A stretch of 13,853 nt of DNA. Source: Promethearchaeota archaeon (GTDB lineage: Archaea > Asgardarchaeota > Lokiarchaeia > Sigyniarchaeales > SOKP01). This document shows, in pieces, positions 1,667-13,212 of this stretch. The position numbers and the translations under genes are program-made. How positions within the stretch are numbered: the stretch's first letter is position 1; each line of letters starts with the position of its first letter. The stretch spans positions 1,836-15,688 of the forward strand of contig JBHLLT010000038.1 of assembly GCA_048938855.1 (NCBI GenBank), given 5' to 3'. The notes beneath the pieces are model-generated. The model saw only the letters and a list, made by a program, of their open reading frames with translations, did no database searches and was not told where the DNA came from.

Positions 1667-4009
1667 ATGAAAGCATCAACATTGAAAAAATTAAATTTAT
1701 TAATTGAAGAAGCTAATGCTCTTAAAGATAAAAATAACTTCTCGAAGGCAATTAAAAAGCTCCAAGAAGCTTTAGATTTTATTAATTTAAAGGTTAAAGA
1801 AGAGGAAGATAAAGTCACTGAAATAGAGAATATAAAAAATGTGATTAACCAAACATATTCTGTTCAAGTGGATAGTGTAATCCAAGTTGGTATACATCAT
1901 ACAGCTCAAAAGAGGTATGATAAAGCAAAAGAGGAATTTCAAAACGCACTAAAGATTATTGAAAATATAGATGACGTTCAGCTGAAAAATGCTGAAGTTG
2001 ATGAAATAAATAAATTGATTAGTGAAAATGATATAGAGCAATTATTAGCCGGTGGACTTGAGTTGAAAAATAAAGGTAACCCCGATGAAGCTTTAGCAAT
2101 ATTTCAAAAGGCATTAAGTATTGCTGAGAAGATTTATCAAAACAAATTTAGTTCAGAAGGTATTTTAAGAATTAAAAATGAGATTGCCCTTATTTATGAT
2201 TCCCAGATTGATAAAATTATAGAAAATGGTAAGGATCTTAAAAAAAATGGACAAAACGATGAGGCTATTAAAATTTTTGAAAATGCTTTAAATACTATTA
2301 AAATGTATTTTGATCCAAAAGATAAAAAAACCCAAATTAGTACTATCAAGAACCAGATTAATGAAATCTATTCGAATCGAATTAAACCTTTATCTGTAAG
2401 GGGAAAAGATTTATTACAACAAAACTTAATGGACCAAGCAATTACTGAGTTTAAAAATGCTTTATCAATAGCGAATAAAATGTACGATTCTGATTTAAAA
2501 ACCCTTGAATTAAGTCTTCTTGCCGAAGTATTAAACCCTATTTACATTGATGAAATTGATTCACTCATTCAAAAAGGTAAGGAAATTACACAAAAAGACA
2601 ATTATGCTGAATCTATATCATTAGTCAATGAAGCTGTCGATAAATTCTATCAAGCTTCTGATATAATAAAAAATATGGTTCAATCAGAATTAACAGATAT
2701 TAAAGTAAATGAAATTAATGAATTGATCAATATTTCATGTCTAGCTGGAATTAATGTAATTAAAGATAAATCTATTCAGGTTATAGTTCAAAAAAAATAT
2801 GAGGAGGTAGTGAGTGATTTATATTCTGCTTTAAGTTTAGCGAAAAGAATGCCATACCCGGAAGATCAAAATCCAGAATTAGAGAATCTAAAAAACTTAG
2901 TTAATAAGGTTTATTTGGCTGAAGTAACTGAAGTTGTAAATAAAGCAGACAAATTGGTAGAAAAAAAAGAGTTCCAAAATGCAATAGATACCTATAATGA
3001 AGCATTGATTATGACCAATAAAATGTATTTAACAACTGAAATGGAAAAAGAAGTTCGTAAGATTAAAAGTTTGATCTATGAAACGGAAATCAAACAATTA
3101 GTTGGAAAAGGAGAAGTAACAGAAGAACAGAAATTAAAAGAGAAAGAGATCGAAAAACTCAAAAAACGACTCGAATATGCCCAAACTATAGATGATCCTG
3201 AACGACGAGTAGCAGAAATGACAAAGATTAAAAAATTGATTGATGAAGTCCATTCAGAGGAAATTAAATTATTAATAGAACAAGGGAATCAACTAGCTGA
3301 TTTAAAAAAATTTGATGACGCCTTTAATTTCTACGAAAAAGCATTAAAAGTCAATGAAATGATGGAATCACCAGATGTAAAAAATAAGGATCTAATTAAA
3401 ACATCTTATAAAAAAGAATTAATCAATCGAGCGAAATTTGAATTAGAAAATCGAAATTATGATAAATCAATTGAACAGTGTACCCGAGCTCTAGAATTAG
3501 ATGATATTTTTGTTGATGCATATCATTATCTCGGTCTTAATTATTACTATAAGAAAAATTATACACTTTCAATAGACAATTTTCAAAGAGCTGTAGATTA
3601 TGATAAAAATTATTTTGAATCATGGAAATGGTTAGGATTAACGTATGAAGCAAAGGAAGATTATGATAATGCTCTCGAAAATATAAGTAAATCAGTAGAA
3701 ATAAATCCTAATTATGCGGACGGTTGGTTTAACTTAGGAAATGTGTATAAATTACGAGGAGAATTTGATAAGGCTATTGAAAGTTATGATAAAGCAACAG
3801 AAGTAGAAGTTGAATTCGCGAATGCATGGTTCTTCAAAGGAATTGCATATTTTGATAAAAAAGATTATAATAATGCTGTTCTCAGTATTGAAAAGGCAAT
3901 TAAATTAGACCCAAATCTGGGTAAAGACATCACTACTCATGTAAAAGACTTTAAAAATGTTATCGAAAAACTTCAAGAGGATCTTTCGATGTCCTTTATT
4001 AAGAGATAA
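1667..4009 (+). CDS. Large helical-repeat protein: about 10 N-terminal 55-65 aa repeats plus about 5 canonical C-terminal TPRs
   Basis: 780 aa; C-terminal 34-aa TPRs (e.g. ADGWFNLGNVYKLRGEFDKAIESYDKATEV, ANAWFFKGIAYFDKKDYNNAVLSIEKAIKLDPN); recurring I.xLIxxG..L.....xxA...FxxAL units in the N-terminal region. Confidence 0.88.
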   Translation: MKASTLKKLNLLIEEANALKDKNNFSKAIKKLQEALDFINLKVKEEEDKVTEIENIKNVINQTYSVQVDSVIQVGIHHTAQKRYDKAKEEFQNALKIIENIDDVQLKNAEVDEINKLISENDIEQLLAGGLELKNKGNPDEALAIFQKALSIAEKIYQNKFSSEGILRIKNEIALIYDSQIDKIIENGKDLKKNGQNDEAIKIFENALNTIKMYFDPKDKKTQISTIKNQINEIYSNRIKPLSVRGKDLLQQNLMDQAITEFKNALSIANKMYDSDLKTLELSLLAEVLNPIYIDEIDSLIQKGKEITQKDNYAESISLVNEAVDKFYQASDIIKNMVQSELTDIKVNEINELINISCLAGINVIKDKSIQVIVQKKYEEVVSDLYSALSLAKRMPYPEDQNPELENLKNLVNKVYLAEVTEVVNKADKLVEKKEFQNAIDTYNEALIMTNKMYLTTEMEKEVRKIKSLIYETEIKQLVGKGEVTEEQKLKEKEIEKLKKRLEYAQTIDDPERRVAEMTKIKKLIDEVHSEEIKLLIEQGNQLADLKKFDDAFNFYEKALKVNEMMESPDVKNKDLIKTSYKKELINRAKFELENRNYDKSIEQCTRALELDDIFVDAYHYLGLNYYYKKNYTLSIDNFQRAVDYDKNYFESWKWLGLTYEAKEDYDNALENISKSVEINPNYADGWFNLGNVYKLRGEFDKAIESYDKATEVEVEFANAWFFKGIAYFDKKDYNNAVLSIEKAIKLDPNLGKDITTHVKDFKNVIEKLQEDLSMSFIKR

Positions 4010-4115: not shown

Positions 4116-5729
4116 TTATTCAATTTTCTTTAAGTGTCTTAGACCTGTAAAGAATAAAGGAAGCGCTATCGCAAGGTGTATGGAAATGAATAATACAGTA
4201 GGAGTTAATTCCCAAGTTGTGATTTCCGGTAATATTCCGCTCAACCAAACCATTAAAAATATGAAGCCTGTAAGTACTCCCATTTGGATACTCATAAGTT
4301 TAAACATATTCAATCCCATGAATTTTCCCTTTTCTTCGAATGCGGGACTAAATCCCTGTATTCCAATTGCTTCAATCAGTACCAGTATCCCATAAGATAA
4401 ATAGGATATGATAAAAACAACCACATAAAACGCATCAAATTGAAATAGAATAGTAAAGAATATTGTTACAACCAAAGCTAATATTATATTGATAATAAAC
4501 ATCGATATTATGAAGGAATAGACAAGACTGTTTACATTCCTAGGACTCCGCTTATACACCCATAATAAGTCTTTACTGCCTACAAAGATGAAATTCCCAA
4601 GCATAAGCCCATAGAGGAGTCCTCCCATGAATATTACCATAAATACTTTAAATCCACCGGATATGAAATCGTTGGCAGCTCCACTTACAGAAAATGAAAA
4701 AATCAATCCATAAACACAGGTAATCCCACCTAAATAAACTAATTTCATGATATTTTCTTTTTTTCGGAAAAATTCCTTGAACTGAGTGATTACTAATCCC
4801 TCCCATTTTACACCTAAAATCCATCTATTCAATTTGTAAAAGGCATTTTCTTTCTTTATAATAGAACTCGTTTTCTCAACTCCCCCTTCTAGGGTGTAGA
4901 AAACATCTGCTTTTTTATAAGAAAGGTATGAGATTAATAAAGGTACGAGAATTGTTAGAGCTAAACTCATCCATATATTTAAGATATAAGGGTTTAATAA
5001 TCCAGGATCAAAAGTATAGAGTATTATATTAGAAAACCATAGAGGCGGATACCACATAAAATAATTTTTAAGCTCTGGATTTTCCAAGATGAACTGAAAG
5101 CCAAACTGTAATGAGTAAATGAGAGCGACCATTCCAATTGTAAGTAAAATCAATAAAACTTTAGCATAATCTCGTGCTTTTTCACTCTTAGCAATCTTAC
5201 GTTCCAGCCAACTCATGATTATACTACCAATTAAGGTTGCCAAAAATACAAGACCAAATACACATATATAAATTACCAAAGTCTGGACAAACGACAAATT
5301 AAAAATTGGATTCAGCATATTTACAAAGATGGGTGTGAGAGCAAATACGAAAGAGAAAAGAATGGGCATCTTTCCTAAGAACTCTCCCAAAAAGATATCT
5401 CCTGCACTAATTGGGGATGCCAACAGGATTTCTTTAAATCCAATCTCAGTTTTACGATACACGTTATTAAGAGGATACATCATAATTACAATAAAGAAGA
5501 TCATCATAACTTGTTCTATAATCATCGCTATAGATGGAATCAAAATTGTAGAGATCTCCTCCATCCCGGCCAAGGTTGGCATAAATTGGTCAAATATGAA
5601 TGGACAAAGATAAAATGCCCAAAAGATTAGGAAAGAATATAAAACTAAGAAAAATGCTTTTCTATTTTTGCGAAATTTTGAAGTCCTAAGTCTGACTTCA
5701 TTCATAGCAATTTTCGTCCATAAAGCCAT
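4116..5729 (-). CDS. ABC exporter permease (polytopic, two fused permease-like halves)
   Basis: 537 aa, about 12-14 hydrophobic segments; EILLASPISAGDIFLGEF ABC-2-type coupling motif in the first half and LWVYKRSPRNVNSLVYS in the second; begins 6 bp after the ATPase stop. Confidence 0.8.
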   Translation of the reverse strand: MALWTKIAMNEVRLRTSKFRKNRKAFFLVLYSFLIFWAFYLCPFIFDQFMPTLAGMEEISTILIPSIAMIIEQVMMIFFIVIMMYPLNNVYRKTEIGFKEILLASPISAGDIFLGEFLGKMPILFSFVFALTPIFVNMLNPIFNLSFVQTLVIYICVFGLVFLATLIGSIIMSWLERKIAKSEKARDYAKVLLILLTIGMVALIYSLQFGFQFILENPELKNYFMWYPPLWFSNIILYTFDPGLLNPYILNIWMSLALTILVPLLISYLSYKKADVFYTLEGGVEKTSSIIKKENAFYKLNRWILGVKWEGLVITQFKEFFRKKENIMKLVYLGGITCVYGLIFSFSVSGAANDFISGGFKVFMVIFMGGLLYGLMLGNFIFVGSKDLLWVYKRSPRNVNSLVYSFIISMFIINIILALVVTIFFTILFQFDAFYVVVFIISYLSYGILVLIEAIGIQGFSPAFEEKGKFMGLNMFKLMSIQMGVLTGFIFLMVWLSGILPEITTWELTPTVLFISIHLAIALPLFFTGLRHLKKIE

Positions 5730-5735
5730 AATCTA

Positions 5736-6551
5736 TCACTTCCCTTTCTTTTTTTTTTTCTTATTAGGGTTTTCACTATTTAGACCATTTTCACGCCACG
5801 ATAATAAGTCTTCTAGATGCTTTGCCCCCATAATTTTAAGGTATGCATCTTCTAGATCTTTTGCATTTTGAGATTCAATAATATCGTTTGGACGACCTTC
5901 CAATTTCAAAGTCCCTTTATCAATTATACCTATAATATCGCATAACTCTTCAGCTGCATCAAGTAAATGAGTACAGATAAAAATAGTTTTATCTGCTTTC
6001 TTCGCTAAATCTGATATAAGATCTTTAACCATTCTCGCTGCTGCAGGATCTAGATTAGATGTAGGTTCATCCAAAAAAATAATCTTGGGATCCTGAATTA
6101 AAGCTGCACAAAGACAAACCTTCTGTTTCATTCCACGCGAATATCCTTCAAGCAAATCGTTTTCACGCCCTTCAAGGTCAAATAGATCAAGGAGCTCATC
6201 TATACGACTTGCAATAGTTGCTTTCGGTAAATAATACAATTCGCCGATAAACTCTAAGAATTCTTTCGCTGTTAATTTTTGATATAATCCAGGAGATTCT
6301 GGTAGAAAACCACAGATCATCTTCACATCATTTGCTTGAGTGAGAATATCATAACCCCCAATTGAGGCTGTACCATTTGAGGGGGAAATAATAGCATTTA
6401 ACATCCTAACTGTGGTGGTTTTTCCTGCACCATTAGGCCCCAGAAGACCATAGGTACTCCCATACGGAATCTCAATATTTAAATCTCTTACAGCTACAAT
6501 ATTACCAAAATTCTTTGTGAGATTTTTGGTCATTATCGCATATTTTTCCAT
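5736..6551 (-). CDS. ABC transporter ATP-binding protein (ABC-2/drug exporter type)
   Basis: Walker A GPNGAGKTT, signature YSRGMKQK, Walker B IIFLDEPT, H-loop CTHLL. Confidence 0.96.
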   Translation of the reverse strand: MEKYAIMTKNLTKNFGNIVAVRDLNIEIPYGSTYGLLGPNGAGKTTTVRMLNAIISPSNGTASIGGYDILTQANDVKMICGFLPESPGLYQKLTAKEFLEFIGELYYLPKATIASRIDELLDLFDLEGRENDLLEGYSRGMKQKVCLCAALIQDPKIIFLDEPTSNLDPAAARMVKDLISDLAKKADKTIFICTHLLDAAEELCDIIGIIDKGTLKLEGRPNDIIESQNAKDLEDAYLKIMGAKHLEDLLSWRENGLNSENPNKKKKKKGK

Positions 6552-6610: not shown

Positions 6611-7030
6611 TTAATTCTCAGCTTCTTTTTCGAATAGATCCTCAAAGTTCATTCCTAATCCCTTGGCAATTTTAACTAATACATTATCATTAAAAATTGA
6701 ACTTACCTCTTCGTCGTCTATTTCGCTCAAAGAAGCCAATTGTTCGAGACTGATATCAGCAACATTAGCAATCTCTCTTAATTCTGCTAATGGTTTACCC
6801 TCTAAGATATCTTTAATTACTGGTTCTTGATAAAAAATCTCATCTATAGGTTTTTTCAAGATTTCCGATATTTTAAAAGATATTGTCAAGGATGGATTAT
6901 ATGAACCCCGTTCTAAGTAATATATTGTCTGGCGAGAAACTCCTACAAGATTAGCTAATTCTAACTGGGACAAATTTAATTCCTCCCTGAATTGCCTTAC
7001 TCTTGAAGCGATTTTTTTCTTAAATTTCAA
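6611..7030 (-). CDS. XRE/Cro-CI family HTH transcriptional regulator with a second, degenerate C-terminal HTH-like region
   Basis: REELNLSQLELANLVGVSRQTIYYLERGSYNPSL...KISEIL is a canonical HTH_3; TTG start preceded by GGTGA SD (minus strand GGTGAGAACGG-TTG). Confidence 0.9.
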   Translation of the reverse strand: MKFKKKIASRVRQFREELNLSQLELANLVGVSRQTIYYLERGSYNPSLTISFKISEILKKPIDEIFYQEPVIKDILEGKPLAELREIANVADISLEQLASLSEIDDEEVSSIFNDNVLVKIAKGLGMNFEDLFEKEAEN

Positions 7031-7094: not shown

Positions 7095-7922
7095 TTAAGC
7101 TAATTTAAACAAATCTTCTATTTTACAATGAAGTACTTCCGCAATTTTGTATGCTAATGCTAAACTTGGATTATATCGACCTTCTTCTAAGAAATTTATC
7201 GTTTGAATTGGTACTCCCACTTTTTCAGCTAAAACGGCAGGGCTCATATTAATACTTTCTCTTTTTTCTCTGATAGTTGTCTTTAAAGATTCTCCTTCTC
7301 GCATTTTCGAAAGGATATAACTAATAAAATTATCAAAAGCAAGTTCTTCCGGTTTAAAGATTTTATCTTCTAATCCGCTTGGAATCTGAGAATATTTTGT
7401 CATCATTTCTATTATTTTGTTCTCAATTATGTATGGATCCTCAAGCCCTGGAATAAGACCTTCAGGACGTACATTGCCTCCACCACCCCCTCCGGCACCA
7501 CTAGCTCCTGCTGTCTCTATTTTTACAGTATAGATCTTATATAATCTATCGAAAACACCATTAACAATATTAATGTTTTGAATTCGAGTATAAGGAATTG
7601 TTGCTCTTTTCTTTGTAAAAACTCCATGGCGAATTATTATGTTATTTTCGGATATTTCATAAGAATACAGTTTTACATATTTATTAAGATACCACAGTGA
7701 GAATGGTATTACAATAACCAAGGGCAGCAATACAGAGTAAATTATCAGCCAAAGAAACAGACTCAATGTAAAGACTAATGGATCAAAAAAGTAGCTTAGC
7801 CAATATGTCAAGATCATCCAAACTGCATAAAATACAATATACCCTAGAATAATTTTAATAATTGATTTTTTCGTGTAACTTCGAGAAATACCACCTTCAT
7901 ATGCAAAGTCTTTTTGACTCAT
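7095..7922 (-). CDS. Membrane protein: 2 TM helices + bacterial PH domain (bPH_2, YdbS-like) + C-terminal XRE HTH
   Basis: Two N-terminal hydrophobic segments; YSYEISENNIIIRHGVFTKKRATIPYTRIQNINIVNGVFDRLYKIYTVKIETAG is typical bPH_2; C-terminal REKRESINMSPAVLAEKVGVPIQTINFLEEGRYNPSLALAYKIAEVL is an XRE HTH; GGAGG SD at 7932-7936 on the minus strand. Confidence 0.88.
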   Translation of the reverse strand: MSQKDFAYEGGISRSYTKKSIIKIILGYIVFYAVWMILTYWLSYFFDPLVFTLSLFLWLIIYSVLLPLVIVIPFSLWYLNKYVKLYSYEISENNIIIRHGVFTKKRATIPYTRIQNINIVNGVFDRLYKIYTVKIETAGASGAGGGGGGNVRPEGLIPGLEDPYIIENKIIEMMTKYSQIPSGLEDKIFKPEELAFDNFISYILSKMREGESLKTTIREKRESINMSPAVLAEKVGVPIQTINFLEEGRYNPSLALAYKIAEVLHCKIEDLFKLA

Positions 7923-8036
7923 TTTATTTTTCCTCCATTTTATTTTAAATTTATTTTTATATATGTAAACTATAATTGTACTAATAATTTAGGCTTTTAA
8001 ACCCCGAAATGTGTTATTTCGAAATTTTTATTCCTT

Positions 8037-8055
8037 ATGTAATATTTATTTACAT
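8037..8055. promoter_or_regulatory. Palindromic putative XRE operator ATGTAA-N7-TTACAT
   Basis: Perfect 6-bp arms, immediately downstream of the minus-strand TATA box. Confidence 0.55.
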
Positions 8056-8058
8056 TAA

Positions 8059-8073
8059 TATTTAAATGTTTCG
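8059..8073 (-). promoter_or_regulatory. Archaeal BRE-TATA promoter for the PH-XRE/XRE/ABC cluster
   Basis: Minus strand reads CGAAACA-TTTAAATA, about 140 bp upstream of the ATG at 7922. Confidence 0.5.
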
Positions 8074-8122: not shown

Positions 8123-8142
8123 ATGTTAAGCAAGCTTTACAT
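8123..8142. promoter_or_regulatory. Second palindromic putative operator ATGTTAAG-CAAG-CTTTACAT
   Basis: 8-bp arms with one mismatch; shares ATGT...TTACAT ends with the 8037-8055 site. Confidence 0.5.
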
Positions 8143-8480: not shown

Positions 8481-8669
8481 ATGAATAAATTTCCATGTGG
8501 TGTCAAACATAACTTTGATACTGGAGTTATAATTGAGAGTGATGATCGTAAGAAATATGAGTGGAATTGCTCTACTTGTTATTTGAAGGAAACTATACTT
8601 ACTAAGGAAGATTTCGAAGAATTTAAAATGAATGGAAGAGTTATTTGCCCTCTATTAACGTATGAGTAA
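8481..8669 (+). CDS. Small Cys/His-containing hypothetical protein (possible zinc-binding micro-protein)
   Basis: 62 aa standalone ORF with CGVKH, CSTC and CP motifs; GGTGA at 8464-8468; long T-tract right after the stop. Confidence 0.6.
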   Translation: MNKFPCGVKHNFDTGVIIESDDRKKYEWNCSTCYLKETILTKEDFEEFKMNGRVICPLLTYE

Positions 8670-8788: not shown

Positions 8789-9631
8789 TTAGAATTTTAT
8801 TGAGGATTCTAGAATTTTTTTCATTCCAAGATTATGAAAGTCAAGTAGTTGGGGTAACATTGATAATATTGCCATTGGGAGTGGAATTGGTATTGGAATT
8901 TTGAAGAAACTTTTTTTCCAATCAATTATCATTAACCCAAATATATCCTCTAAATGGATAGCAATTTCTTTAAGTATATGAAATGAATAGGCTTTTTTTT
9001 GTTCTTGTGGAAGAAAATTTTCAATGTTTTCAAGAATATTTTTAATAATATCAAATGCGGGGGCACTAAGGTAATATTTATTGATTCCAGAAAGTTGGTT
9101 TTCTAATTCTCCTATATCCTTATCATGAAATATTAATTTAATTTCAATTTCGTTCTTACGTTTATTTAAGATTGAAACTATTTTCTCATCATAATGAGAG
9201 AGAGGAAGAAATGAAATAATTGTTTCTTTGGCTGTATCTATCAACATATAGAGATATTCTTGAAGCACTGTTTCTCCCGCAATGCCGATAAAAGGTAAAT
9301 CTTCAGCTTCTTCTGTATCATAAATATTATCTATTATTTCAATACTTTTCTGCCCTAAATCCTGAATTTTACGAGAATAGTTTAGTAAATGTTCTTGAAT
9401 TACTTCTTTTGGCTTAATGAGGTACATTTTCTTTTTCTTTTTAGGATAAATATCAATGAAACCCTTTTGTTGAAGTTTAATCATTGTTTCGTAAATTTTG
9501 GGTTGAGGAACGCCACTGTATTTATGAATTTCATGAGCACTTAAGATTTTATAACGTATCAGGGTGGTGAGTGTTTGAGCTTCATATTGAGTAAAACCGA
9601 AGTTTTGCAGTAATTTTTCTAAATGATTCAT
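8789..9631 (-). CDS. TrmB family transcriptional regulator
   Basis: LQNFGFTQYEAQTLTTL...SAHEIHKYSGVPQPKIYETMIKLQQKGFI winged HTH; C-terminal effector domain remnants (IDTAKETIISFLP, LMIIDWKKSF). Confidence 0.92.
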   Translation of the reverse strand: MNHLEKLLQNFGFTQYEAQTLTTLIRYKILSAHEIHKYSGVPQPKIYETMIKLQQKGFIDIYPKKKKKMYLIKPKEVIQEHLLNYSRKIQDLGQKSIEIIDNIYDTEEAEDLPFIGIAGETVLQEYLYMLIDTAKETIISFLPLSHYDEKIVSILNKRKNEIEIKLIFHDKDIGELENQLSGINKYYLSAPAFDIIKNILENIENFLPQEQKKAYSFHILKEIAIHLEDIFGLMIIDWKKSFFKIPIPIPLPMAILSMLPQLLDFHNLGMKKILESSIKF

Positions 9632-9653
9632 ATCAAGCTAAATCTTCAAATTT

Positions 9654-9668
9654 CAAAATATTTATATA
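9654..9668 (+). promoter_or_regulatory. BRE-TATA for the ABC-2 operon
   Basis: CAAAATA-TTTATATA. Confidence 0.45.
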
Positions 9669-9680
9669 TGTTTTGCTATG

Positions 9681-9698
9681 TTACTACTAGAGTAGTAA
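9681..9698. promoter_or_regulatory. Perfect palindrome TTACTACT-AG-AGTAGTAA, putative TrmB operator
   Basis: 8-bp perfect arms in the divergent trmB/ABC intergenic region; TACT...AGTA half-sites resemble described TrmB-family motifs. Confidence 0.7.
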
Positions 9699-9700
9699 TA

Positions 9701-9713
9701 TATATAAATTTTT
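9701..9713 (-). promoter_or_regulatory. BRE-TATA for the TrmB gene
   Basis: Minus strand reads AAAAA-TTTATATA, about 70 bp upstream of ATG 9631. Confidence 0.45.
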
Positions 9714-9761
9714 ATATTCTGAATAATCATAAAAAATTTAGAATTTTTTAAGGTAATTAAT

Positions 9762-10781
9762 GTGTCAGTAAATGAGAAAGAAAATCTGGTCAATAATTCT
9801 AGCCAAAAATCTACTAACGTTCTTATCGAATTAAATCGGGTCAGCAAAAATTACCCTAATACCGTTGCATTGGACAATATTTCATTTCAGATTCATAAAG
9901 GAGAAATTTTCTGTTTAAATGGACCAAATGGAGCAGGAAAATCAACACTAGTAAAATTAATAACAGGACAGTTGAAGCAAACTAATGGAACAATTAAAGT
10001 TAAAGGCCGAGATCCTTATAATGAAAGAAAATCGTTATTTGGTGTGTTTGGTCTTGTCCCACAAGAAATAGCTTTATATAATGAACTTACTGGTCGTGAA
10101 AATTTAGAATTTCATGCAAGATTATATAATGTACCAAAATCTGAAATAAGTCCTAAAGTTGAGAAGTTATTAAAGCTTGCTGGTCTTTTTGAAAGGAGAA
10201 ATGATCGAGTTGGAACTTACTCAGGAGGAATGAAAAGACGTCTCCAATTAATCAGAGCATTACTCCATGAACCAGAACTTCTTATATTAGATGAACCAAC
10301 GTTAGGAGTAGACGTTCAGACACGTAGTGCAATTCATGAATATATTTTAGAATTAGCCAGTCAAGGAATGACAATATTAGTAACTACAAATTATATGGAA
10401 GAAGCTGAAAGATTAGCTGAAAATATTGTCATTCTAGATACAAAGATAATTGAAGGACCTGGACGCCTACGTGAGATACAAGAACGCGTATTTCCAAACA
10501 CTATTTTTGAATTTAAAACTACCTATAAGAGTCTCACTTCTGAGTTTTATGATCAGTTTCTTAAACAAGAATTAAATGGACAAATTATAATGGAAAAAAA
10601 CTTGAGCGAAACACACTCGTTTTTTCAAATTATGTTTGAATCAAATAATATTGAAGAAATTATTGAAAAATTTCTGGGATATACTAAATCCCATAATATC
10701 CCTATTGAGGAATTTGTATTTAAAAAACCAACATTAGAAGATATCTTTCTTAAACTTACCGGTAAGGAGTTTAGAGAGTAA
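9762..10781 (+). CDS. ABC-2 exporter ATP-binding subunit (DrrA-like)
   Basis: Walker A GPNGAGKST, Q-loop VPQE, signature YSGGMKRR, Walker B LILDEPT, C-terminal PTLEDIFLKLTG; GTG start; H-loop reads TTNY. Confidence 0.95.
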   Translation: MSVNEKENLVNNSSQKSTNVLIELNRVSKNYPNTVALDNISFQIHKGEIFCLNGPNGAGKSTLVKLITGQLKQTNGTIKVKGRDPYNERKSLFGVFGLVPQEIALYNELTGRENLEFHARLYNVPKSEISPKVEKLLKLAGLFERRNDRVGTYSGGMKRRLQLIRALLHEPELLILDEPTLGVDVQTRSAIHEYILELASQGMTILVTTNYMEEAERLAENIVILDTKIIEGPGRLREIQERVFPNTIFEFKTTYKSLTSEFYDQFLKQELNGQIIMEKNLSETHSFFQIMFESNNIEEIIEKFLGYTKSHNIPIEEFVFKKPTLEDIFLKLTGKEFRE

Positions 10782-11977
10782 TGAAAAAGAAGAATGAGCT
10801 AAATATTAAAAAAGGATACGTTACTAATCTAAAATTATGGTTTCATGATTTAAAAACGATATTACATAAGGATCTAATTTCTACTAAAAGAGTTAAGAAA
10901 TATTTTATAACTGCCATAATTCCTCCTTTGGTTATATTAATTGTTTTTTCAACCTTTTTACTAGTTGATAATCCTGAAACATATACAGTTATGGTAGTTG
11001 ATGATGATAATACTAAATATTCCAATATTATGGTTAATTACATAAGCAATATCACCAGTGAATTTGCTCCTTGGTTTAATGTAATAGAAATCGATTCTTA
11101 TGAAGATGCGAAAACAAAATTAGAAAATTATGAAGTTTTGGGACTTATTCACATTCCCACTGGATTCCAAGCAAATATCACTGCTAATAGTACATATATT
11201 AAAGGAGTTCTATATTTGGAAGTCCAAAATATAAATGATGATTATGTAAAAAATTATATTCAAAGATTAGATGAGGCTGTTCTCGCTTTCAATCAATATG
11301 TACATTTATCTAGTGGTCATGTAGATAATTTCGAGCTTATTGCGAAAAAGTCTTACGTAATTAATCAAGATGTAAGTCAAATAAAGGGGATAGTCATAGG
11401 TGTTATTGGAGTATATGGAATTGTATGTGGTCTATTATATGGAGGGTTAAATGTAGCAAAAGAATACAATGATGATACAATGATTGAAGTTATAATTAGC
11501 CCAATTAAGCGTAGTGCTTATATTGCATCAAAGCAATTAATAGCGGTTATTTTAGGGTCTATTGTCGTGTCAATTTTATCTCTTATCTTATTTTTGATAT
11601 TTAACATAGAATTTCGTGGTAATTTAGGAATAGTTATTTTAGCATTCCTCCTTTCAACCTGGTTTCATACATGTTTAGGTGGTTTAATTGGATTAAAATC
11701 AAAACATACGATGAACGTAATTCTAATAACGATAGTTATAGGAATTCTTTTTTGGTTTTTTTCAGGAGGATTTGCTCCCACAAGAATGTTAGGAGGTACA
11801 GTCTATTTAGTTTCAAGGTTCATTCCTGCAACTTACTGGATGGAGATTTTATTTTCAGAAACGTTATTACCAAACCTTTTTTATGTTTTACCTAGATTAG
11901 GGATTCTAGCAATATCGTGTATTTGTCTTACTATTCTTTTTTGGGTTTTAATTTCAAGGGAGGGATTTAAGTTATGA
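10781..11977 (+). CDS. ABC-2 type permease with large extracellular domain (ABC2_membrane_3-like)
   Basis: TM1, VMVVDDDNTKYS loop motif, EYNDDTMIEVIISPIKRSAYIASK coupling motif, FFSGGFAP, SRFIPATY; TAATG overlap with the ATPase. Confidence 0.92.
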   Translation: MKKKNELNIKKGYVTNLKLWFHDLKTILHKDLISTKRVKKYFITAIIPPLVILIVFSTFLLVDNPETYTVMVVDDDNTKYSNIMVNYISNITSEFAPWFNVIEIDSYEDAKTKLENYEVLGLIHIPTGFQANITANSTYIKGVLYLEVQNINDDYVKNYIQRLDEAVLAFNQYVHLSSGHVDNFELIAKKSYVINQDVSQIKGIVIGVIGVYGIVCGLLYGGLNVAKEYNDDTMIEVIISPIKRSAYIASKQLIAVILGSIVVSILSLILFLIFNIEFRGNLGIVILAFLLSTWFHTCLGGLIGLKSKHTMNVILITIVIGILFWFFSGGFAPTRMLGGTVYLVSRFIPATYWMEILFSETLLPNLFYVLPRLGILAISCICLTILFWVLISREGFKL

Positions 11978-13212
11978 TAAAAAAGGTTTCTAAGAAAAAG
12001 AATTCAACAATTGCTCTGCTTAAAAATGAGATCTCAAAAAATATTAAAATAATTTTCCGTGGTCCTTCTCGTACTTTATTGCTGATTTCTTTAATATTTC
12101 CAATAACCTATTTGTTTTTTATGAATATGATTTTTGGAGCTGTAAATTTTAATTACCCAATTGCTCTTGTAATTCCTGATTATAATTCTGATAACGAACT
12201 GAATTTTGCCTTAGAAAACAATGAGATCCCAAATGTCGAGGAATTCATGGATTATTTAAATAACAACGATTTAGTAGGCCCAACAATTGTAAAGAGCCAT
12301 ATACAAATGATCGGAATTTCAGCCCAGCAATTTGAAAACATATTAAAACTTGAGGAGATTGTTATGATTGCTATACTTCCTGAAAATTTTGAAAATATAA
12401 TACAATCTGTGAAAAATGGTACATGGACAGAGGGTAATGTTACAATTGAGTTAAGATGCTTAAATATTCATGAAGATTATCTCAAAAATCTATACTTTGG
12501 ATTTCAGAGAAAGCTAAAAGCATATTATGATAATGTTTTGTTTAATGAGACTGAAGTAATTTATGTTTATAGTGATGCTCATCCTGAAAGACAAACCTTC
12601 CCGCGAATGTGGACGATTGGTACAGAAGCAATAGTATTTGTTTGCTTAGTTTCTTCAATGATAATTGGCTCTGCATTTATATTTATTGAGAAAGGTAATA
12701 GAATGACTCCTGAACTTGCGCTTGCTACTGCACCAAATCAAAATTATACTTACTTGGGGAAAGTACTTTCAGCGAGTATTTTGAGTTTTATTATCAATTT
12801 TACATTAGGGACAACGATCATTTTTCTTTGGATTGGGATCCAGTTTCCAGTAAATTTTCTTGGCTTTTTATTAATTTCTTTCGGTTCTATTATTTTAGGG
12901 TCAATTCTAGGGACTTTCCTTGGAGCTTTAATCCCAGAACAAGTATATGCTTTCCCAATATCCTTGTTTACTGTACTTGCAACCCTTTTTTTATGTGGAG
13001 GATTTGTGTCTGTTGAAATGTTCGGTCCCCTTCTTCGTTCTATTGCTAATTGGATTCCTTTCACGTATCTCTATACTATTATGGGAAATACTGTATTAAC
13101 CGGAGATGCAGCTAGTGTGATTCAGATTCTTGGTTTAATTGGCTATATTATATTATTTTTTGGTTTAGGTTTAATAATATATCGAAGATTTGTAATAAAA
13201 CCTAAAAATTAA
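11974..13212 (+). CDS. ABC-2 type permease, second subunit
   Basis: TM1, PIALV loop start, EKGNRMTPELALATAP...YLGK, FLCGGFVS, ANWIPFTY; ATGA overlap with the preceding permease. Confidence 0.92.
   Translation: MIKKVSKKKNSTIALLKNEISKNIKIIFRGPSRTLLLISLIFPITYLFFMNMIFGAVNFNYPIALVIPDYNSDNELNFALENNEIPNVEEFMDYLNNNDLVGPTIVKSHIQMIGISAQQFENILKLEEIVMIAILPENFENIIQSVKNGTWTEGNVTIELRCLNIHEDYLKNLYFGFQRKLKAYYDNVLFNETEVIYVYSDAHPERQTFPRMWTIGTEAIVFVCLVSSMIIGSAFIFIEKGNRMTPELALATAPNQNYTYLGKVLSASILSFIINFTLGTTIIFLWIGIQFPVNFLGFLLISFGSIILGSILGTFLGALIPEQVYAFPISLFTVLATLFLCGGFVSVEMFGPLLRSIANWIPFTYLYTIMGNTVLTGDAASVIQILGLIGYIILFFGLGLIIYRRFVIKPKN

Follow-up and report, generated by a model that had tools for sequence, protein, structure and literature searches.

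The window, that is, the whole stretch of DNA analysed here, comprises 13,853 nucleotides of contig JBHLLT010000038.1 of a Promethearchaeota archaeon and contains the gene for a 275-aa membrane protein (P0001) in which a bPH_2-type pleckstrin homology (PH) domain is joined to an XRE-type helix-turn-helix (HTH) domain. The gene lies at positions 7095–7922, stop codon included, on the minus strand, a strand left unstated by an earlier reading of the letters alone (hereafter the sequence-only reading); as claimed there, it forms a single open reading frame (ORF) of 275 codons with no interruption. The call is supported by the ORF itself, by Pfam and by full-length conservation in Asgard genomes (see below). 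Pfam places bPH_2 (PF03703) at residues 86–142 (61.1 bits against a cut-off of 22, E = 1.2e-16) and HTH_3 (PF01381) at residues 217–271 (56.6 bits against a cut-off of 23, E = 2.7e-15). An AlphaFold2 model of the protein was built on 30 family members and has a mean predicted local distance difference test score (pLDDT) of 77. The combination of two transmembrane (TM) segments, a PH domain and an XRE fold, as first described, agrees with Pfam, hydropathy and AlphaFold2 alike.

The N-terminal part of the protein (residues 15–85; positions 7668–7880, minus strand) is a TM hairpin, as indicated by the AlphaFold2 helices, the hydropathy and the charge pattern. The model shows two long helices, 15–46 and 53–85, with a pLDDT of about 90, and hydropathy peaks at 21–39 and 54–72 mark the two TM segments. 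Since the N-terminal tail carries five lysine or arginine residues and the seven-residue loop between the TM segments none, the positive-inside rule predicts an N-in/C-in topology with the PH and HTH domains both in the cytoplasm, as the sequence-only reading had supposed. The same topology, with an intracellular PH domain, was predicted by Xu et al. for DUF304/bPH_2 proteins (PMC2817789). The hairpin is followed by the bPH_2 domain with its glycine-rich loop and C-terminal helix (residues 86–179; positions 7386–7667, minus strand), assigned by Pfam PF03703, AlphaFold2 and Foldseek. It is modelled as a beta sandwich (87–160) with a disordered glycine-rich loop (140–151) and the PH C-terminal helix (164–178), and its nearest solved relative in Foldseek is a bacterial PHb protein (3dcx). 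Because the PH domain belongs to the bPH_2 type, which is widespread in bacteria and in archaea of other groups and has prokaryotic relatives only, the idea of a eukaryote-like PH signalling protein is not borne out; a eukaryogenesis angle is unsupported and the protein has no bearing on the origin of eukaryotic PH-domain signalling.

Between the two domains lies a conserved linker with a helix (residues 180–212; positions 7287–7385, minus strand), defined by alignment and AlphaFold2 and bearing the signature [VI]F-x4-[LIV]AFDxF[IV][SA]Y. The linker peptide quoted in the sequence-only reading is indeed present, at residues 185–208, and the linker is the best-conserved stretch of the family alignment: A195, D197 and F199 are invariant among 30 diverse members, and the signature is found in the stand-alone relatives described below as well. 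In the model, residues 180–195 have low confidence (pLDDT 38–56) and are followed by a helix, 194–209. The C-terminal domain (residues 213–275; positions 7098–7286, minus strand) is an XRE HTH of the CylR2 type according to Pfam HTH_3, Foldseek, alignment and column conservation, with non-canonical residues at the DNA-contact positions (P228, P238 and I239). Five helices (217–264) are modelled, and short terminal strands close the fold. Foldseek aligns this tethered HTH with CylR2 (1utx, 2xiu) and DR_2454 (9k3w), with a root-mean-square deviation (rmsd) of 0.9–1.0 Å, TM-scores of 0.87–0.89 and a sequence identity to these chains of 41–47%.

A word-indexed search returned 408 homologues of the fusion protein. 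The best 120 of the 408, which were inspected, are nearly all about 270–285 aa long (a few are shorter) and all have both Pfam domains; their named sources are Promethearchaeota or metagenome-assembled genomes (MAGs) labelled 'Loki', 'Hod', 'Hermod', 'Thor' or 'Odin'. Their database records bear no annotation more specific than 'PH domain-containing protein' or 'putative transcriptional regulator'. An exhaustive phmmer search against 1.84 billion cluster representatives gave only 27 clusters at E ≤ 1e-30, the weaker matches being YdbT-like proteins (three to four bPH_2 domains), YdbS-like proteins or HTH-only proteins. In the same search the HTH-less YdbS-like proteins measured about 150–230 aa, in agreement with the statement of the sequence-only reading that such proteins end soon after the PH domain. 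The 20 most divergent representatives were looked up (33–57% identity) and the named ones are all Lokiarchaeota or Promethearchaeota, among them Lokiarchaeum ossiferum NEF87_000646; in the ESM-Atlas, the sole cluster with both domains is 100% archaeal. The conjecture that the host is an Asgard archaeon is likewise supported.

At the genome level, the fusion was located at 71 loci of species-representative genomes, all of them Asgard MAGs. Across the phylum, 106 of 400 genomes contain a match, nearly always full length and without internal stops. The matching genomes all fall into families f1–f5 and f7 of one class (85 of 134 genomes in f1, 12 of 14 in f3, 3 of 4 in f4 and 2 of 2 in f7), the f5 matches covering the bPH part only, and about 240 genomes of the other families gave no match with this query. 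The fusion is restricted to one Lokiarchaeia-like class of Asgard archaea, Lokiarchaeum ossiferum included.

An assembly or annotation artefact, that is, a YdbS-like gene and an XRE gene fused by a sequencing error, could appeal to the few relatives with a stop in the linker (G240, G241, G252 and G229); no other support for it was found. We consider its probability negligible, considering that more than 100 genomes, obtained in independent projects and some of them closed, show the frame uninterrupted, that the linker is the most conserved part of the protein and that the stop-bearing forms are deletion remnants. The sequence-only reading had itself envisaged a split between the PH and HTH domains, or homologues that are always separate genes. 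The fusion is conserved in this large set of genomes, the rare linker-stop forms, judged by the one examined, are remnants of deletions and not split genes, and no lineage with the PH and HTH parts as intact separate genes was found in the homologue and genome searches.

Split genes were considered for the linker-stop variants, and the one case examined (L074:1435-2234, in G241) was rejected as such, its stop lying in a deletion remnant. Here the bPH gene is cut short by a stop in the linker, and a leftover ORF of 32 aa runs from helix 2 of the tethered HTH into the C-terminus of the soluble partner described below; a single deletion has thus taken the tethered HTH and the partner together. 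At another locus (L075:860-3129, in G182), the fusion gene is duplicated in tandem, with a full copy of 285 aa, a truncated copy of 229 aa and the tandem-HTH partner, in this order. A portable linker-HTH module shared with other sensors was also considered and rejected, as the matches to residues 150–274 are divergent bPH_2-HTH members with the same architecture in Pfam. The same applies to a defence or toxin-antitoxin system: PADLOC gave generic matches to HTH domains (HTH_VI, capH, the RmrA N-terminus) and to ABC ATPases (mad3, AriA), with none for the bPH part, and this reading is further disfavoured by the fusion gene being single-copy and following lineage boundaries.

Directly downstream of the fusion gene lies a gene for a soluble partner of 139 aa (positions 6611–7030, minus strand), consisting of a canonical CylR2-type HTH and a second, acidic and degenerate HTH-like domain (Pfam HTH_3 at 11–65 and HTH_26 at 84–136). 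Such a tandem-HTH gene directly follows the fusion gene in 66 of the 71 loci, usually 57–166 nt away, and the remaining five loci look cut by the contig end. The AlphaFold2 model of the partner has a pLDDT of 92.9 and CylR2 as its best fold match; there is a weak NCBIfam match to SlrR, and SinR is among the fold matches. In the second domain the 'recognition helix' is acidic, and the domain carries a net charge of −11 in the window, against a mean of −7. Pfam finds no phosphorelay, kinase or receiver domain in either protein of the pair.

The pair is followed on the same strand by a gene for an ABC ATPase of the DrrA/ABC-2 exporter subfamily (positions 5736–6551, minus strand; Pfam ABC_tran, NCBIfam drrA with 247 bits), which is probably part of the same operon, and by a gene for a 537-aa polytopic membrane protein (positions 4116–5729, minus strand). 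The gaps between the fusion, partner, ATPase and 537-aa genes are 64, 59 and 6 nt. With 12 hydropathy peaks, the 537-aa protein has about 12 TM segments and is presumed to be the permease of the ATPase. It has no match in Pfam, NCBIfam or PADLOC, while proteins of this type co-occur with the ATPase in 26 loci; it probably stands for a family of permeases, as yet undescribed, that work with ABC-2 type ATPases of Asgard archaea. The ATPase gene follows the pair in 25 loci and is found nearby in about 30. In four loci an ABC ATPase and a permease lie upstream of the pair on the same strand, the permease being of the classical ABC-2 type in L028, L036 and L041 and of the 537-aa type in L033. Altogether, about half of the 71 loci have a linked ABC-2 exporter of the DrrA type; in loci without an exporter, the next gene is convergent and the pair stands alone. 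Because the partner is present in 66 of the 71 loci and the exporter in only about half, the gene pair is the constant unit and the exporter a frequent but optional cargo.

This association could mean that the fusion protein is a transport accessory, in which the TM hairpin and a bPH_2 ring form part of an exporter or of a peptide-export or immunity device, like YdbS/DdE, while the HTH couples the abundance of the device to its own expression. Indeed, the YdbS/YdbT-like proteins DdE and DdF are required for the export of a leaderless bacteriocin and are encoded beside an ABC transporter (PMC8657885), pores or transporters were proposed for membrane PHb proteins by Xu et al. (PMC2817789), and the exporter of our loci recurs with two permease types. 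On the other hand, the window and the conserved neighbours contain no YdbT-like gene with three bPH domains, the cluster has no conserved gene for a small peptide, and half of the loci keep the HTH pair without a transporter, which argues that the constant element is regulatory and not one of transport. We therefore judge a role in transport improbable. The genome of the window holds no second strong bPH match to this query.

The region upstream of the fusion gene has the layout of a putative archaeal promoter. A Shine-Dalgarno-like GGAGG (positions 7932–7936, minus strand), identified by position scan and conserved across loci, begins 14 nt before the ATG. Further upstream lies a TATA-box-like element, TTTAAATA (positions 8059–8066, minus strand), of a kind that adjoins a palindrome in 37 of 61 upstream regions. 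In the window, a motif scan finds the candidate operator O1, the 19-bp palindrome ATGTAA-N7-TTACAT (positions 8037–8055, minus strand), 3 nt downstream of the TATA box, and a second candidate operator, O2, the 20-bp palindrome ATGTAAAG-N4-CTTAACAT (positions 8123–8142, minus strand), 86 bp upstream of O1. An isolated half-site, GTTTACAT (positions 7963–7970, minus strand), located 48 nt before the start codon, is kept in the upstream regions of close relatives.

This arrangement recurs in divergent loci, which share the TATA-like TTTAAATA followed after 2–4 nt by the palindrome ATGTwAA…TTwACAT. When 871 kb of related loci were searched on both strands, this combined pattern gave 41 matches, 36 of them within 300 nt upstream of the fusion gene, counts that are somewhat inflated by the kinship of the loci. 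The motif stays at the TATA box while its distance from the start codon shifts from about −130 to about −60, and it also lies beside the TATA box in stand-alone relatives of other families. In the whole genome of 3.95 Mb (30% G+C) there are only seven strict palindromes of this type. Two of these are O1 and O2; the other five lie in ORFs or away from gene starts and have no TATA box. A wider regulon was accordingly rejected, none of the five being promoter-like. Archaeal repressors typically bind just downstream of the TATA box. Since the palindrome abuts the module's own TATA box in just this position, the module looks autoregulated, as far as its promoter can tell.

Between O1 and the start codon we also noted an inverted repeat, TTTCGAAAT-N5-ATTTCG (positions 8005–8024, minus strand), which in close relatives reads TCAAAAT-N5-ATTTTGA, so that both arms have changed symmetrically. 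A hairpin in the leader RNA or a second kind of protein site, possibly for the tethered HTH, could be formed by it. As an RNA element in the leader it was rejected, its fold reaching a z-score of −2.0 only, and Rfam gave no match in the window. A scan for sigma-70 promoters and terminators, which uses bacterial models not relevant to an archaeon, did not rise above shuffled sequences in the window.

Which of the two proteins reads these sites was addressed by comparing their HTHs. The tethered HTH and the first HTH of the partner are 41% identical, and both are closest to CylR2 and DR_2454 (rmsd about 1 Å). In the partner, Q22, with which helix 2 starts, and S32-R33-Q34-T35, with which the recognition helix starts, are 100% conserved over 67 loci. 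The equivalent positions of the tethered HTH are occupied by alanine at 228 (52%; proline in the window), proline at 238 (93%), isoleucine at 239 (55%) and glutamine at 240 (73%). The tethered HTH of the window thus reads S-P and P-I-Q-T where CylR2, DR_2454, the partner and the stand-alone relatives read [ST]-Q and S/T-R-Q-T, and so lacks the canonical contact set of a helix-2 glutamine and Ser-Arg-Gln-Thr. Because Q22 and S32–T35 are invariant in the partner and have been lost from the tethered copy, the reading head for the conserved operator would belong to the soluble partner.

A second line of evidence comes from family members with other gene arrangements. Seven members from sister lineages have no partner gene nearby, namely two of the three L. 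ossiferum paralogues, those of three other f3 genomes and those of both f4 genomes. [ST]Q…[ST]R[QT]T is retained in each of the seven, and their promoters have a palindrome beside the TATA box, either ATGTAA…TTACAT or TGTCAAG…CTTGACA. Five f3 members are accompanied by a single-HTH partner of 64–96 aa with VSRQ; in the tethered copies of these members AET, AES or SES is found, with SRT retained in two. Finally, the f1, f2 and f7 members have a tandem partner, and their tethered HTH reads PIQ, PIE, KKE, KNE, KPE or SVE. In a maximum-likelihood tree the tandem-partner and the single-partner groups each form one clade (support 100/99), the latter nested among the stand-alone forms, and the canonical residues are lost in both partnered clades. 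This distribution suggests an order of events in which a partner was gained and the tethered HTH then lost its reading residues.

Two side observations concern these relatives. Lokiarchaeum ossiferum (G138), which is a cultured organism, has three paralogues in one genome (L076, L077 and L078): two stand alone and have the canonical SRQ and TRQ, and one has a single-HTH partner of 67 aa and a degenerate AET helix. Both 'stages' therefore coexist in one organism. At L079 and L088, the operator is a different palindrome, TGCAACC-ATT-GGTTGCA, present in two copies upstream of the fusion gene, and the recognition helix of the single-HTH partner is SRQM instead of SRQT; partner and operator may have co-varied here.

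Taken together, we are inclined, at about even credence, to regard the fusion protein as the membrane sensor half of a two-protein, phosphorylation-independent relay specific to Loki-type Asgard archaea. The soluble CylR2-type partner would read O1 and O2 and repress the operon by occupying the site beside the TATA box. The TM hairpin and an oligomeric bPH_2 assembly would respond to a cue associated with the membrane, for which a membrane-active compound or the substrate of the exporter is plausible, and the tethered HTH with the linker helix would transmit the state of the sensor by binding the partner rather than DNA. The contact could be a heterodimerisation of the two HTHs or a docking of the acidic domain of the partner. 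When the partner is held at the membrane, the operon would be de-repressed and the level of the module raised, together with that of the ABC-2 exporter where present. The ancestor would have been a true membrane-tethered autoregulator, as the stand-alone relatives with their canonical HTHs and the same kind of operator suggest, and a duplicated soluble HTH would later have taken over the reading of DNA.

A stricter form of this idea, which we put forward tentatively and think somewhat less probable than even, is that the tethered HTH does not read DNA and acts as a membrane-anchored decoy or anti-repressor, which would capture the partner according to the state of the sensor, either through HTH-HTH contact or through the acidic domain as a DNA mimic. 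If so, the Lokiarchaeia would preserve three stages of one process (a stand-alone protein with a canonical HTH, a protein with a single-HTH partner, and a protein with a tandem partner and a degenerate tethered HTH), and the pair would offer a concrete model for the signalling step from CylR1 to CylR2.

Several observations weigh against the assignment of DNA reading to the partner alone. The tethered HTH keeps T241, mostly Q240, and the YNPS loop; the domain is under strong purifying selection, so it may still bind DNA with a different specificity, or as a heterodimer at the 19- and 20-bp sites. The substituted positions are assigned their contact role by analogy with HTHs of the 434/lambda type, in which they contact bases and phosphates. 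At L080 and L089, a partner is present, yet the tethered HTH keeps SRTT, and the pattern of residue loss rests on only about two independent events. Furthermore, about half of the loci have no linked transporter, so that the module does not act on an exporter in every case.

These points leave room for a classical transmembrane one-component regulator, in which the tethered HTH dimerises, binds ATGTAA…TTACAT from the membrane and controls the operon, the partner being a second regulator that acts independently or in cooperation, for instance by forming a heterodimer with the tethered HTH at the 19- and 20-bp sites. The protein has the TM region and DNA-binding domain of the published definition of transmembrane transcription regulators (TTRs), which are reported from archaea (PMC10269533), the needed dimer could be provided by oligomerisation of the bPH domain (PMC2817789), and this is very probably how the stand-alone members function, which have canonical HTHs and palindromic operators of their own. 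The HTH of the window is, moreover, well folded and CylR2-like (rmsd 1.0 Å), and most of the domain is strongly conserved. On the other hand, P228, P238 and I239 replace the helix-2 glutamine and the Ser-Arg pair, and these positions vary by clade while the half-site stays ATGTwAA; it is the partner that has invariant reading residues to match the conserved operator, and the strict pairing with a partner is left unexplained if the fusion protein is self-sufficient. For the protein of the window we hold this explanation to be rather unlikely, although it deserves serious consideration. The proposal of the sequence-only reading, a membrane-tethered one-component transcription factor, thus holds for an anchored bPH_2 protein with a cytoplasmic XRE HTH. 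Its 'one-component' part is at odds with the soluble HTH gene found at nearly all loci, and direct DNA contact with the replacement of canonical residues that the partner and the stand-alone relatives retain.

The other proposal made there was release by proteolysis, in which cleavage in the flexible linker (180–195) would free the helix and the HTH as a soluble factor. A segment that is highly conserved and yet modelled with low pLDDT would suit a recognition or cleavage site; an interaction surface explains the conservation equally well, no protease gene is conserved near the pair, and a freed HTH without the canonical reading residues would gain little. We found no specific support for this proposal and consider it very unlikely.

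Some further features of the window lie outside the module. Within the gap of 860 nt that precedes the fusion gene, an ORF of 62 aa (positions 8481–8669, plus strand) has the Cys/His pattern PCGVKH…NCSTCY…ICP. It has no Pfam match; since tblastn finds it in 11 related loci at 60–87% identity, it probably encodes a real small protein, possibly a zinc-binding one. A second transporter module extends from 8789 to 13212. It consists of a gene for a TrmB-family regulator (8789–9631, minus strand), divergent to an operon for an ABC-2 exporter with an ATPase (9762–10781) and two ABC-2 permeases (10781–11977 and 11974–13212); a synteny test placed the TrmB gene close to the PH-HTH pair in no more than one related locus. 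Convergent to the cluster is a gene for a 780-aa protein rich in TPR repeats (positions 1667–4009, plus strand), which has a weak MIT-like match and is syntenic in 14–16 related loci with a DUF3795 protein and an amidohydrolase.

To our knowledge, signal transduction in Asgard archaea is almost unstudied experimentally. The module described here would be a compact, kinase-free route from membrane to promoter, with a defined operator, a regulon that is apparently its own operon and an output that is often an ABC-2 exporter. Because the operator is defined and the regulon small, it could be a tractable model for how archaeal tethered regulators reach DNA or control a soluble repressor; and since most genomes (85 of 134) of the Loki-type family that is sampled best contain a member, as does Lokiarchaeum ossiferum, it may be testable in the latter. 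The series from stand-alone to partnered to degenerate forms would amount to a natural experiment on a one-component system splitting in two, and the fusion provides a first clear link of the enigmatic bPH_2 (YdbS/YdbT) domain to gene regulation. The parts are known, namely bPH_2/YdbS proteins, CylR2-type repressors, TTRs and the control of CylR2 by CylR1. In the literature searched we found no description of the bPH_2-XRE fusion, its soluble paralogue with an acidic pseudo-HTH, the operator, the Loki-type restriction or the apparent hand-over of DNA reading to the soluble copy.

Four known systems invite comparison. With the proteins of the YdbS/DdE type (COG3402; PF03703, formerly DUF304), the fusion protein shares the N-terminal 2-TM hairpin and one cytoplasmic bPH_2 domain with an ETAG…PEG motif. 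The association with ABC transporters recurs too, as for DdE/DdF beside ddHIJ (PMC8657885), and the DUF304 PHb domain is predicted to be oligomeric as well as intracellular (PMC2817789). However, YdbS-like proteins end after the PH domain (about 140–200 aa) and are paired with a YdbT-like protein with three bPH domains, whereas the fusion protein has about 95 extra residues (linker helix and HTH) and an HTH partner gene instead of a YdbT partner.

The likeness to CylR1/CylR2 of Enterococcus faecalis concerns the system as a whole: the genes for a membrane protein and a small soluble repressor lie together, there is no phosphorelay and the promoter DNA is palindromic (PMC3709268). CylR2 is an XRE repressor of 66 aa that needs the membrane protein CylR1 for induction by a mechanism that is unresolved (PMC3709268). 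CylR1 is set apart by its description as a small (about 94 aa) protein with three TM segments and without a PH or HTH domain (PMC3709268). In the pair studied here, by contrast, the membrane protein has a CylR2-like domain of its own, the repressor has an extra acidic pseudo-HTH, and the system is archaeal with a TATA-box promoter.

With TTRs such as ToxR, CadC and BcrR, the fusion protein shares the presence of a DNA-binding-type domain and TM segments in one polypeptide. TTRs were reported in archaea by Demey et al. (2023), whose survey mentions no TTR with a bPH_2 domain (PMC10269533). The fusion differs from such TTRs in its bPH_2 domain, its near-obligatory soluble paralogue and the degenerate DNA-contact residues of its tethered HTH; the partner and the degenerate residues argue against the self-sufficiency of a TTR, while the stand-alone canonical relatives argue that the ancestor was a one-component regulator. 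BcrR is a membrane protein of the XRE family and regulates a bacitracin exporter of the ABC-2 type. Compared with TTRs of the BcrR type, the order of the parts is reversed, with the membrane part N-terminal and the HTH C-terminal. Finally, in the SinR/SinI/SlrR system of Bacillus, an XRE repressor is set by forming a heteromer with a paralogous or related protein and not by a small ligand. The likeness that we propose is the control of an XRE-family repressor by a related partner; in the Lokiarchaeia, the proposed antagonist would be anchored in the membrane and linked to a PH domain, and contact would be made through the HTH or linker rather than through a C-terminal helical hook.

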